Below, piece after piece: positions 2,195 through 50,434 of a DNA stretch of 55,640 nucleotides. A program made the translations under genes and the position numbers. Position 1 is the first letter of the stretch; each line of letters opens with the position of its first letter. Origin of the DNA: an uncultured Polaromonas sp. (GTDB lineage: Bacteria > Pseudomonadota > Gammaproteobacteria > Burkholderiales > Burkholderiaceae_C); contig CAXSGT010000002.1 of assembly GCA_964236835.1 (NCBI GenBank), positions 1 to 55,640 on the forward strand, in the 5' to 3' direction. The notes beneath the pieces were generated by a model. The model was not told where the DNA came from. It saw nothing but the letters and a program-made list of their open reading frames with translations, and ran no database searches.

Positions 2195-2740
2195 ATGTCC
2201 AAACCCCTTCAAGCCAGCCGGCTCAATATGCAGGCCTTTGCACGGGCCGGCGTGCCGCTCGTTGAAAGCACTTTGCTACGGAATATGGAGCGCGTTGCGC
2301 AGGAGGTGCAGGCGCTCGAGCCCGATTTGGCCGTTGACTGGGAGGCCAGAGCCGAGCTCCGCCCAGGTGCGGGCGCCGAAGATGACGTCTGGCTGCATCT
2401 GCTGGCCAAGACATCGGTTCCGCTGACCTGCCAGCGCTGCATGGGAACGGTCCAGACACCGCTGGAAGTCGATCGATGGTACCGCTTCGTGGCAAGCGAA
2501 GACATCGCCATGGCCGAGGACGATGCGTCCGAGGAAGACCTGCTGGTCATGGCGCCGCAGTTCGATCTGCTTTCCTTGCTGGAAGACGAGCTGTTGATGG
2601 CGCTGCCCTTGGTGCCCATGCACGACGCATGCCCTGCCGCGCCGGTCATGCGGGCTGGCGACGATACGCTGGCGGCGCCCGCCGGTGATAAACCCAATCC
2701 GTTTGCCGTGCTATCGCAGCTTAAAAAGGAAAATCAGTGA
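2195..2740 (+). CDS. yceD: DUF177/YceD family 23S rRNA accumulation protein
   Basis: CQRC motif, LEDELLMALPLVPMH, C-terminal NPFAVL; upstream of rpmF. Confidence 0.92.
   Translation: MSKPLQASRLNMQAFARAGVPLVESTLLRNMERVAQEVQALEPDLAVDWEARAELRPGAGAEDDVWLHLLAKTSVPLTCQRCMGTVQTPLEVDRWYRFVASEDIAMAEDDASEEDLLVMAPQFDLLSLLEDELLMALPLVPMHDACPAAPVMRAGDDTLAAPAGDKPNPFAVLSQLKKENQ
2275..2334 (+). repeat. GCTA-N9-TAGC motif (family A), copy 1, inside yceD
   Basis: GCTA CGGAATATG GAGC GCGTTGC GCAGG AGGTGCAGG CGC TCGAGCC CGATTTG. Confidence 0.65.
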
Positions 2741-2819
2741 TGTCATCCCGCGTTGAGCAGCTGCGTAGAAGCTTGCGACAACTGGACGAACAACTCGAGC
2801 GATATGCCTTGGTACGGGC

Positions 2820-2825
2820 TATAAT
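2820..2825 (+). promoter_or_regulatory. -10 box TATAAT for rpmF
   Basis: Consensus TATAAT 135 nt upstream of the rpmF ATG. Confidence 0.55.
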
Positions 2826-2960
2826 TAAAGGTTCGGCGCGCCAATACGGTAATAACGAAGCGATAGCCTTTTTCCTGAGGCCTGGCTTCGGCGGTTTACC
2901 GTACGCTTAAATTCGGTTCGCAGTTTTACCACCACCATCCCATCACGTCAGGAGCGAAAC

Positions 2961-3143
2961 ATGGCTGTCCAGCAAAACAAAAAGTCCCCTTCAAAACGCG
3001 GCATGCACCGCTCGCACAATGCGCTGACTGTGCCGGGCATCGCCGTGGAATCGACCACCGGCGAAATTCACCTGCGGCATCACATTAGCCCAACCGGCTT
3101 TTACCGTGGCCGCAAGGTGCTGAAAACCAAAGCCGAAGCGTAA
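2961..3143 (+). CDS. rpmF: 50S ribosomal protein L32
   Basis: [27 protein letters not shown]. Confidence 0.98.
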
Positions 3144-3159
3144 CGCACACGCCTGAAAC

Positions 3160-3193
3160 AAAGGCCCGCACTTGCCCTGCGGGCCTTTCTTTT
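3160..3193 (+). terminator. Intrinsic terminator after rpmF
   Basis: AAAGGCCCGCA/TGCGGGCCTTT stem followed by CTTTT. Confidence 0.8.
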
Positions 3194-3238
3194 GCTTGTT
3201 TTGCCTGAATCCTCATCCCTGACTGCACCTGGCCGCTC

Positions 3239-48144: not shown

Positions 48145-48167
48145 ATATCTTATATAAGATATAAGAC
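48145..48167. promoter_or_regulatory. Palindromic operator ATATCTTATATAAGATAT(AAGA), likely the site of the adjacent GntR
   Basis: Perfect 18-bp palindrome 48145-48162 between the divergent gntR and mdh genes. Confidence 0.75.
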
Positions 48168-48170
48168 TGG

Positions 48171-48200
48171 TTGACGCAGCTTAATTTTCCCGCGTAAAAT
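48171..48200 (+). promoter_or_regulatory. sigma70 promoter of mdh (TTGACG-N18-TAAAAT)
   Basis: Near-consensus -35 and -10 boxes; GGAG RBS downstream. Confidence 0.6.
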
Positions 48201-48260
48201 ACCCCTCGAATCCAGCACGCCCGTCCATCAATTTTCTTATCTTTCCTGGAGTTCTCAATC

Positions 48261-49247
48261 ATGAGCAAAAAACCTGTCCGCGTTGCCGTTACCGGTGCAG
48301 CCGGCCAAATTGGCTATGCCCTGCTGTTCCGCATCGCCTCGGGCGAAATGCTGGGCAAGGACCAGCCGGTCATTTTGCAACTGCTCGAAGTGCCGGCGGA
48401 AGGCCCGCAAAAGGCGCTCAAAGGCGTGATGATGGAACTCGACGACTGCGCGTTTCCGCTGCTGGTCGGAATGCAGGCGCACGGCGACCCGATGACGGCG
48501 TTCAAGGACGCCGATTACGCGCTGCTGGTGGGCTCGCGTCCGCGCGGCCCCGGCATGGAGCGCGCCGAGCTGCTGGCTGTCAACGGCGCCATCTTCATCG
48601 CGCAAGGCAAGGCGCTCGACGCCGTCGCCAGCCGCGATGTCAAGGTGCTGGTCGTTGGCAACCCGGCCAACACCAATGCCTACATCGCCATGAAGAGCGC
48701 GCCCGGCCTGCCGCGCAAGAACTTCACCGCGATGCTGCGACTCGACCACAACCGCGCCGCCAGCCAGATCGCCGCCAAGACCGGCAAGGCGGTTGCCGAT
48801 ATTGAAAAGCTCACGGTGTGGGGCAACCATTCGCCGACGATGTACGCCGATTACCGTTTTGCCACCATCAACGGCGAAAGCGTCGAAAAAATGATTAACG
48901 ACCAGGACTGGAACGCGAACGTGTTTCTTCCGACCGTGGGCAAACGCGGCGCCGCGATCATCGAAGCGCGCGGCCTGTCGTCGGCGGCGTCGGCGGCCAA
49001 CGCCGCCATCGACCATATGCGCGATTGGGCGCTGGGAACGAACGGCAAATGGGTCACGATGGGTATTCCGTCGGACGGCCAGTACGACATTCCGAAAGAC
49101 ACGATGTTCGGTTTTCCGGTCACCTGCGAAAACGGCGACTACAAGCTCGTCGAAGGCCTGCCCATCGACGCTTTCAGTCGGGAGCGCATCGACAAGACAC
49201 TCAAGGAGTTGCAGGACGAGCAGGCCGGCGTCGCCCATTTGCTCTGA
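48261..49247 (+). CDS. mdh: Malate dehydrogenase
   Basis: [40 protein letters not shown]. Confidence 0.98.
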
Positions 49248-49260
49248 AGCATAAAGTCGT

Positions 49261-49444
49261 GCGCAGCGCCGGGCCGCCCCAAGCAAGCACCGCCCCCAAG
49301 GGTGGCAGCGAACCACACACAGCGATAAGCGTAGGGGGGACACCTCAGCCCCAGCAGGGGCCGCGGAACCGGCTAAGCCGGGCCGCAGGCGCAGCGGCCC
49401 CCTCGGGGGGCAGCGAACCACACGCAGTGGGGAGCGTGGGGGCC
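49261..49444 (-). repeat. Two tandem family C repeats between mdh and the CitE-like gene
   Basis: GCCCCCAAGGGTGGCAGCGAACCACAC..AGCGTAGGGGG and GCCCCCTCGGGGGGCAGCGAACCACAC..AGCGTGGGGG; the second matches the reverse complement of 20814-20896. Confidence 0.85.
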
Positions 49445-50434
49445 ACACCACATCCCCGCGAGGTGCTTTTAGGCGCCCAGGCCGCAGCCGTCTCGCTGCC
49501 GGTTTGCGACCATTACAGCGGTGTCGAGGCGCGCATGCGCAAAAGCCTGCAATTGCAGGCGGAAATGACGGAAGAGTTCGGCGCCTGTGTTTTCGACGTG
49601 ACGCTCGATTGCGAGGACGGTGCGCCCGTTGGCGGCGAGGCCGACCATGCCGCGATGGTGGTGGCGTTGGCGACAGGCGCTTCAGCCCAAGCTCGGGTCG
49701 CCGTGCGGGTGCATCCGGTGGATCATCCTTCGTTCGAATCCGACATGGCCGTGATCGCCGGAGGGCTGTCGCATCGGCTGTCGCACATCATGGTTCCCAA
49801 GGTCGAATCGGTCCGGGATGTGATGCGGGCCGAGCAGGCGCTGCTGGCCGCTTCGGTGGCGCAGTTGCCGCTGCATGCGCTGATCGAGTCTCCGCTGGCC
49901 GTGCGCAACGCTTTCGACATCGCCGGCCATCCAAGGGTGCAGTCGCTCAGTTTCGGCTTGATGGATTTCGTCTCTGCGCATGGCGGCGCGATACCCGCCC
50001 ATGGCATGAGCGGCCAAGGCCAGTTCACCCACCCGCTGGTGCTGCGCGCCAAGCTGGAAATCGCTTCGGCGTGCCATGCTTATGGCAAGGTGCCGTCGCA
50101 TTGCGTGGTGACGGAATTCAGCGACGCCGGCGCCATGCTGACGGCCGCCCGTCGCGCCGCCGGCGAACTTGGCTATACCCGGATGTGGAGCATTCATCCG
50201 AATCAGATCCGTCCCATCCTGCAGGCCTTTGCCCCCAGCGAAGGCGACATTGACGATGCTACTAAAATAATAGCTGCCGCCGCACGCGCTGATTGGGCCC
50301 CAATCAGCTTCAATGGTCAATTGCACGACAGAGCGAGTTATCGCTATTTCTGGCAAGTGCTCGAGCGCGCGCACCGCACGGGCCGGCCGCTTCCCGCTGC
50401 TGCGCAAATTTATTTCCCGCCAGCTCTTCATTGA
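49436..50434 (+). CDS. HpcH/HpaI aldolase / citrate lyase beta (CitE-like) family protein
   Basis: LDCEDGAP, MVPKVES, LIESP, FGLMDF, MWSIHPNQI; no ATG after the repeats, candidate GTG starts at 49259, 49427 or 49436. Confidence 0.85.
   Translation: MGATPHPREVLLGAQAAAVSLPVCDHYSGVEARMRKSLQLQAEMTEEFGACVFDVTLDCEDGAPVGGEADHAAMVVALATGASAQARVAVRVHPVDHPSFESDMAVIAGGLSHRLSHIMVPKVESVRDVMRAEQALLAASVAQLPLHALIESPLAVRNAFDIAGHPRVQSLSFGLMDFVSAHGGAIPAHGMSGQGQFTHPLVLRAKLEIASACHAYGKVPSHCVVTEFSDAGAMLTAARRAAGELGYTRMWSIHPNQIRPILQAFAPSEGDIDDATKIIAAAARADWAPISFNGQLHDRASYRYFWQVLERAHRTGRPLPAAAQIYFPPALH
50258..50317 (+). repeat. Family A motif, copy 9, inside the CitE-like gene
   Basis: GCTA CTAAAATAA TAGC TGCCGCC GCACG CGCTGATTG GGC CCCAATC AGCTTCA. 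Confidence 0.7.

Follow-up and report, generated by a model that had tools for sequence, protein, structure and literature searches.

A 64-bp element dispersed over chromosomes of Comamonadaceae and an HxlR/DUF24 protein as its candidate reader

Introduction

Two short motifs, ATAGCT(N22)CAAAAG with 125 copies in Polaromonas naphthalenivorans CJ2 and GCTTAT(N5)AAGCG with 114 copies in Acidovorax ebreus TPSY, have been listed as separate potential novel motifs without a function (Tong, Schliekelman and Mrazek 2017, PMC5217627), and the supplement of that survey holds many more pentamer pairs of the element described below for Polaromonas, Rhodoferax and Acidovorax. Other described systems approach this element in single respects. 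The DNA uptake sequences (DUS) of Neisseriaceae and the uptake signal sequences (USS) of Pasteurellaceae have a genomic signature and have been proposed to spread by drive (PMC2817400; PMC2397512), matS sites occur at a density of 1 per 49 kb in Ter, and FtsK orienting polar sequences (KOPS) have been adopted by prophages (PMC3603311). The HypR box of Bacillus subtilis has the same half-sites as the core of our element with one more spacer base (PMC3351151), and BRE is a tandem repeat of about 90 bp with 69% GC and 1-29 copies (PMC3110155). Here we describe a one-sided element of about 64 bp that was noticed as nine copies in a 55,640-nucleotide stretch of DNA from an uncultured Polaromonas sp. 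(positions 1 to 55,640 of contig CAXSGT010000002.1; the whole stretch is called the window below). The two published motifs correspond to positions 13-18 plus 41-46 and to positions 25-30 plus 36-40 of this element, and share its bias toward convergent spacers. A preliminary description of the window, made from the letters alone, had recognised no named element, which holds, although two fragments were thus already in print as unexplained motifs.

Results

Sequence and geometry of the element

The genome to which the window belongs (G000) comprises 3.50 Mb in 342 contigs with 63% GC. An iterated position-weight profile was seeded with the nine copies, whose coordinates, strands and letters had all been reported correctly. 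It found 492 sites in G000 that score 20 bits or more and 0 in a local shuffle, and within the window the converged profile returned exactly nine sites, the same as the seed copies. A profile built from intergenic copies only matched coding sequence 177 times, as against 6, 8 and 6 times in three within-gene shuffles of synonymous codons. The earlier view of a genome-wide site is thereby borne out, with a clear excess over codon-preserving shuffles and a mean density of one site per 7.1 kb in place of the one per 6 kb or so estimated from the window.

With a length of about 64 bp, the element carries 52 bits of information, of which the core contributes 25 and the tail 27. The core is a 17-bp GCTA-N9-TAGC palindrome (GCTA-Y-NN-WWW-NN-R-TAGC), after which the tail consensus runs W, G25, TG(C/G)G at 37-40, an A-rich stretch at 42-45, WTTT at 51-54 and WAAW at 61-64. 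The fixed geometry that had been proposed for a unit of some 60 bp stands, with the length now taken to position 64 by the additional A/T tract at 61-64; the G at +8, which had been called invariant, is conserved in only 72% of the copies genome-wide, as against 94% for G38 and 91% for G40. The offset between core and tail is exact in 400 of 407 cases, and 0 of 543 cores carry a tail on both sides, so that the element is one-sided. A strong dyad is centred at position 9 and weak ones lie near positions 32 and 58. The top covariation involves neighbouring bases only, with none between arms, and therefore gives no sign of a hairpin, and the identity of a copy to its best other copy has a median of 69% and a maximum of 94%. 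The element is thus a duplex site and neither a hairpin nor a young repeat. An RNA family was ruled out on the same lack of arm covariation together with an Rfam search of the window, which gave no match. Promoters of the sigma-70, sigma-54 and sigma-32 types, IHF and Fis sites, dif and CIRCE were compared by eye with their consensuses and rejected, since spacing and invariant bases do not fit and the orientation of the element is free. The motif is real, family-wide and outside every repeat or site family with which it was compared.

The core upstream of an HxlR/DUF24 gene

In 6 of 10 site-poor genomes examined, the core lies directly upstream of a homologue of HxlR, and two of these genomes, G201 and G329, contain no other match in more than 6 Mb. 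In the counts over the family, site-rich denotes genomes with at least 50 matches by either the strict core or a dialect-tolerant pattern of half-site plus tail. A core about 110 bp upstream of the orthologue was found in 24/24 site-rich and in 24/31 other genomes; in this position upstream of hxlR it overlaps promoter-like sequence and mostly lacks the 47-bp extension. G000 has a single homologue (C163:6470-6796, locus L058, outside the window), and this gene is also preceded by a core. The 17-bp core is thus a probable operator upstream of HxlR-family genes, and the preliminary statement that the motif does not look like a promoter operator finds no support for this part of it. The upstream operators are often paired at a distance of 31 bp, and also of 26 or 45 bp, unlike the 64-bp site (L066, L069, L032, L041, L047, L062, L082).

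The G000 protein is an HxlR/DUF24 winged-helix protein (Pfam PF01638, 28.4 bits against a cut-off of 20.8). Its structure model reached a predicted local distance difference test score of 88 with a 16-sequence alignment and returned YodB, QsrR and HxlR as the top folds; a sequence search of the PDB gave no match. By its sequence the protein has no signal peptide. Cysteine is absent from it, and none is conserved in the alignment (A1); the recognition helix is nearly invariant. The core is likely the self-operator of this HxlR/DUF24 protein, which is the candidate reader, and we predict with good confidence that the protein also binds the genome-wide sites. Around the gene, grpE was seen in 96 and dnaK in 88 of about 132 hxlR loci, often with a small FKBP gene in between, and nine database proteins join a part orthologous to HxlR with an FKBP domain.

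Distribution among genomes

Core counts are bimodal across 300 genomes of the family, of which 90 are site-rich, and in 199 genomes from other families of the class, G499 among them, the core was not enriched, with at most 8 matches. An hxlR orthologue is present in 90/90 site-rich genomes, in one of them in two pieces, and among the genomes without the orthologue 0/172 are site-rich; a gene family that co-occurs with the motif has thus been found. Within Polaromonas, counted without G046, cores number 0-1 in 17 of 21 genomes that lack hxlR and at least 50 in 78 of 99 that possess it. At least three genera (g1, g93, g157) include rich as well as poor members, and copy numbers range from 20 to 900 between genomes.

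Positions 25-41 differ by genus with the geometry unchanged (G167, G264, G373, G278, G383, G228, G347, G204, G240). Twelve genomes are rich in cores and poor in the half-site-plus-tail pattern (among them G281, G320, G366, G204, G226, G223 and G256) and probably hold further dialects; one site in G281 keeps the geometry with GGAC at 38-41. An initial equation of few strict cores with loss of the system was wrong for G167, G239, G264 and G373, which were reclassified as rich dialects, and this also weakened a proposed pair of HxlR marker residues of rich genomes (Glu5 and a short C-tail). Loss held, in samples of 40-88 kb, for G068, G283, G212, G218, G344, G260, G357, G136, G083, G270 and G001. 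In G068 and G283 the remaining cores lie mostly where G000 has sites, with weak tails.

Several genes were compared between the two classes. No neighbour of hxlR tracks site-richness in about 130 loci, where grpE, dnaK, the FKBP gene and a MarR gene occur in both classes, and comEC was present in 64/64 genomes, rich or poor. A slmA match over the cut-off was absent from 6/26 site-rich genomes (G000, G072, G096, G124, G156 and G239, four of which are close kin) and present in 25/26 site-poor ones. TopA did not separate the classes either: in 51 of 52 Comamonadaceae genomes, rich as well as poor, nothing scored over its cut-off, and the weaker match seen there falls in a frame of about 1000 residues that is probably topoisomerase III. 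A synteny-gap screen of 1.29 Mb of site-poor DNA gave no candidate and touched only 536 of 3319 proteins.

Origin of the coding copies

At pdxJ, 30 orthologous loci align without a gap across the site, and its presence or absence is due to substitutions, both synonymous and non-synonymous (for instance Ala-Ile-Asn-Leu versus Ala-Leu-Gly-Leu). The yceD, rseB and trpF copies are likewise colinear with motif-free orthologues in G043 or G109, with codons and residues altered to spell the site, and insertion at an empty orthologous site was not seen at any of these four genes. Rare codons are forced at the core positions, GCT serving for 108 of 109 Ala and ATA for 74 of 74 Ile, as against 5.7% and 4% genome-wide, and two frames, those that give Ala-Ile/Thr-x-x-Ile/Val-Ala, account for 118 of the 155 coding copies. 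Codons are overprinted, by selection as the preliminary description had it or by drive, and the coding copies are, again in line with that description, not transposed miniature inverted-repeat transposable elements (MITEs).

Placement along the chromosome

Placement was assessed against our own gene calls in G000 (3319 genes). Of the copies, 155 are coding, 89 overlap the end of a gene, 224 are intergenic and 24 are at contig edges; many are no more than 60 bp away from a stop codon. Convergent spacers of 100-400 bp hold a site in 41 of 94 cases; for tandem spacers of that length the figure is 119 of 623, and for divergent ones 28 of 277. In tandem spacers 95 sites point with and 91 against transcription. 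Sites lie downstream of 6% of the genes with high-expression codon use, a class that includes alien genes, as against 17%. Only one inverted pair of the terminator type was found within 250 bp. Some core-only matches, probably unrelated look-alikes, sit in terminator-like hairpins after tRNA-like sequence (C4:8312, C4:15134 and C142:8777 in G000; L043, L046, L054).

The spacing of the sites is more even than chance. Neighbours less than 1 kb apart number 25 where 51-62 are expected, and when the number of sites on each contig is kept constant, most of the deficit lies below 1 kb. A non-coding copy is present within 5 kb of only 47 of 155 coding copies (85 +/- 6 expected), which means that coding copies fill gaps. 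Replication polarity was not seen, adjacent sites being oriented alike in 129 and oppositely in 109 cases; a GC-skew test gave 146 versus 160 and is weak, since genes are likewise unbiased. The polarity claimed earlier is therefore internal to the element and is tied to neither transcription nor replication. On the closed chromosome of G240 (oriC at 1.41 Mb), among the matches listed, 127 cores of one subtype lie all round: the 0.5-Mb intervals of the first 3 Mb hold 14, 6, 14, 17, 20 and 18, and the last 0.9 Mb holds 27; on that of G092, listed and unlisted parts hold 34 and 46 cores per Mb. A large regional hole was not seen in these subsets, in which holes under about 300 kb would escape detection.

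Foreign DNA, plasmids and phages

No site was found in 57 kb of G000 contigs below 57% GC, and 0 strict cores occur in two plasmids (543 kb) of the site-rich species P. naphthalenivorans (strain CJ2). The profile, run on 150 kb of CJ2 plasmid sequence, found 2 sites, both strong and full (L337:36068 and 37423, pPNAP01), which flank an ATPase gene between pglX and pglW in a BREX-2 cluster. A stringent pattern matched 29 viral contigs (L379-L407, L242), records that were selected for having a site. Their sites are mostly inside phage DNA, 26 of 29 loci having no close host-like gene nearby, among genes for portal, tail, primase, repressor and invertase. Temperate phages bear full sites in their own genes. 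Six loci have two sites within 3 kb, and one site falls at the beginning of a frame that resembles a large terminase. A role as phage packaging site was rejected, as no place is fixed among the 29 loci.

Copies in the window

The nine copies (Table 1) lie on both strands, 5 plus and 4 minus, and for 8 of 9, between 2 and 5 of the five site-rich relatives compared have a copy at the same place on the same strand. The gene contexts assigned to them in the preliminary description (inside yceD, rseB, pdxJ, trpF and the CitE-like gene, at the acpS and lysS stops, and in the nagZ/serA and leuB/leuD spacers) were all confirmed.

Table 1. The nine copies of the element in the window, with profile scores and conservation.
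Site	Coordinates	Strand	Score (bits)	Conservation
Inside yceD	2275..2338	+	31	Same place and strand in 5/5 site-rich relatives
Over first codons of rseB	12915..12978	-	57	Kept in 5/5 site-rich relatives
Inside pdxJ	22322..22385	-	47	Gap-free across 30 orthologous loci
Over acpS stop, upstream of nagZ	22944..23007	-	34	Kept in 5/5 site-rich relatives
Between convergent nagZ and serA	24113..24176	+	60	
Over lysS stop, best copy in the window	27130..27193	+	71	Kept in 4/5 site-rich relatives
Inside trpF	33216..33279	-	45	Kept in 5/5 site-rich relatives
Between leuD and leuB	39568..39631	+	61	Kept in G072, G096, G124
Inside CitE-like lyase gene	50258..50321	+	33	Kept in G072, G096

The yceD site is absent by substitution in both G043 and G109, and the trpF orthologue of G109 is colinear and motif-free. 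The acpS-nagZ spacer is shorter in some other relatives, and the 3′ end of nagZ bears a site in many relatives, in either orientation. In the CitE-like gene the core of the site persists at the same place in G283, which belongs to another genus. Two stretches of the window vary in content, namely positions 5342-7406, where fabH is separated from the next fab gene by a BNR-repeat gene and a membrane-protein-like gene, both missing in G043 and G109, and positions 24199-26508, a serC(2)-serA block that is absent at that place from G109.

Discussion

Judged from sequence, the element has the features of a protein-binding signal that spans the chromosome, and there is a candidate reader for it. Our leading reading, at even odds, is that this signal is a chromosome-organising site specific to Comamonadaceae that was built from a repressor operator; granted binding by HxlR, chromosome architecture becomes the purpose toward which we lean. 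In such a scheme an HxlR dimer would dock on the GCTA-N9-TAGC core in the manner of YodB and QsrR, and a partner would hold or bend the adjoining 47-bp tail at a fixed helical phase. Selection would favour a site every few kb along the chromosome, whichever way it points and outside promoters, and the complexes would serve as orientation-independent anchoring or domain-forming points along the chromosome. Prophages would adopt the site as prophages adopt KOPS.

A number of observations weigh against this scheme. The A/T profile of the element has no single helical period, its peaks falling at 8, 9.5-10 and 14 bp, so that bending of the tail is something we only infer, and the codon use of hxlR is unremarkable (25th percentile), unlike that of abundant nucleoid proteins. 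Four site-rich Polaromonas assemblies, 79-94% complete, have no detected hxlR, G155 has 35 cores and no hxlR that could be found, and G142 has 89 cores with its hxlR in two pieces (C1:1687347-1687656), owing either to recent loss or to sequencing error. Kinship among the profiled genomes makes all such counts overstate independence. The palindrome has largely lost its left arm in G167 and G264, where hundreds of sites persist (42 sites in 375 kb against 7 in a shuffled run, and 14 in 68 kb, respectively), and the self-operator was not seen in G264 and G373; the picture of a dimer on a palindrome is therefore not universal. The tail dialects and the wide range of copy number fit drive better than selection on each site. 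Finally, 38 of 128 carriers of the orthologue are site-poor, and HxlR alone is not sufficient for site-richness. Because of this insufficiency, and because the recognition helix is nearly invariant while the tail dialects vary, a second factor likely reads the tail.

In a more novel account the element would belong to a family-wide system for marking the chromosome that is unlike any described. Such a marking system would combine the repressor operator with a second reader of genus-drifting specificity. Its mark would be needed every few kb, would have altered housekeeping proteins to be placed there and been copied by temperate phages, and would allow the cell to tell its own chromosome from foreign DNA or marked DNA to be favoured in transfer without a surface uptake receptor; we consider it less likely than not. 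The main rival of the architectural reading is a self-DNA mark raised by molecular drive because HxlR-bound DNA has an advantage in packaging, transfer or recombination or is shielded from a host nuclease, and this too we consider less likely than not. Sites would then accumulate like uptake sequences and foreign DNA without sites would be at a disadvantage, and the preferred frames of the coding copies, the conserved positions, genus dialects, even spacing, repeated loss and wide copy-number range are all in keeping with it, as is the scarcity of sites in low-GC contigs and plasmids; the phage copies could be mimicry. However, the likely reader has no signal peptide and would bind double-stranded DNA in the cytoplasm, unlike the pilin receptors of uptake systems, inverted terminator pairs are lacking, comEC is present in rich and poor genomes alike, and the phage copies occupy no fixed packaging position. 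The sequence data alone do not separate the architectural from the self-mark reading.

The remaining alternatives are much less probable. That the copies are strong sites for gyrase or another topoisomerase, with HxlR as loader and relief of supercoils at gene ends, is improbable: the excess of convergent over divergent spacers, A/T tracts about 10 bp apart and the 51 of 52 genomes without a match over the TopA cut-off would suit it, but promoter avoidance accounts for the convergent bias equally well, TopA is missing irrespective of site-richness, sites are rarer behind genes of the mixed high-expression codon class, and the gyrase motif of E. coli is 130 bp long, symmetric and degenerate (PMC6379681). 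We give slightly less weight still to a very large ordinary transcriptional regulon or a set of protein-dependent terminators, which the operator nature of the core, its overlap with promoter-like sequence upstream of hxlR and the many copies close to stop codons would favour; against this, divergent promoter regions are depleted, 155 copies lie inside genes, tandem spacers show no preferred direction, and copies occur in essential operons in both directions. Another clade-specific protein might read an RTAGCW half-site plus the tail, the match to HxlR reflecting shared ancestry, which would explain the lost left arms, the 38 site-poor carriers and the grouping of site-rich genomes in related groups, but the full palindrome is kept in most genera and matches the self-operator of hxlR, and Polaromonas genomes without hxlR mostly have 0-1 cores, making this very improbable. 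Least credible of all is an old family of MITEs or repetitive extragenic palindromic (REP) sequences inserted by a transposase. Some intergenic spacers, such as acpS-nagZ, are shorter in relatives without the site, so that copying between spacers may have occurred there, but at four coding loci the orthologues that lack the motif align colinearly, terminal repeats and hairpin covariation are absent, identity between copies is low, and the window has no Rfam match.

A candidate protein can now be named for a motif that covers the chromosomes of 90 of 300 sampled Comamonadaceae and was formerly seen only as unexplained fragments. A 52-bit site at hundreds of places, paid for by residue changes in housekeeping enzymes, implies a strong force, and we know of nothing similar outside uptake sequences. 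The natural losses, dialects and phage copies are ready-made controls, and the case would show how a genome-wide system can arise from a local repressor. The sites also bias analyses of codons, dN/dS and promoters in the genomes that bear them.

A search of full-text literature, with subscription journals and curated regulon databases outside its scope, returned no report of the whole element or of HxlR in a genome-wide role, and an earlier description elsewhere is possible. The available part of the survey that lists the two fragments (PMC5217627) has no full element, protein, codon overprinting, dialects or function. BRE is likewise a repeat of Polaromonas, Rhodoferax and Acidovorax, but identity with it was rejected on its description and different make-up (PMC3110155).

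Strong gyrase sites and BIME-2 resemble the element in their location at gene ends and their phased A/T tracts; the element is shorter, one-sided, rich in information, not hairpin-forming and not enriched behind highly expressed genes. With matS/MatP, SlmA, Noc and KOPS it shares the combination of a sequence-specific protein with many chromosomal sites. It is far denser than matS, however, and in the subsets seen it is neither confined to nor excluded from one region, in which it differs from matS, SlmA, Noc and parS sites; its orientation has no link to the direction of replication, unlike that of KOPS, Chi and Ter, and slmA has no match over the cut-off in G000 and five other site-rich genomes. 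DUS and USS come nearer, having hundreds of copies on both strands, preferred frames, conserved positions, dialects and scarcity in foreign DNA, but the present element has 64 bp and 52 bits, a core that fits the operator of a cytoplasmic repressor, and no inverted terminator pairs. The candidate reader itself resembles HypR, YodB and QsrR in its PF01638 domain, its fold and a self-operator of TAT..ATA half-sites around an A/T centre. It differs from them in that the G000 protein has no cysteine and so lacks their redox-sensing residue, and in that there are here hundreds of sites, mostly off promoters, each with a fixed 47-bp extension.

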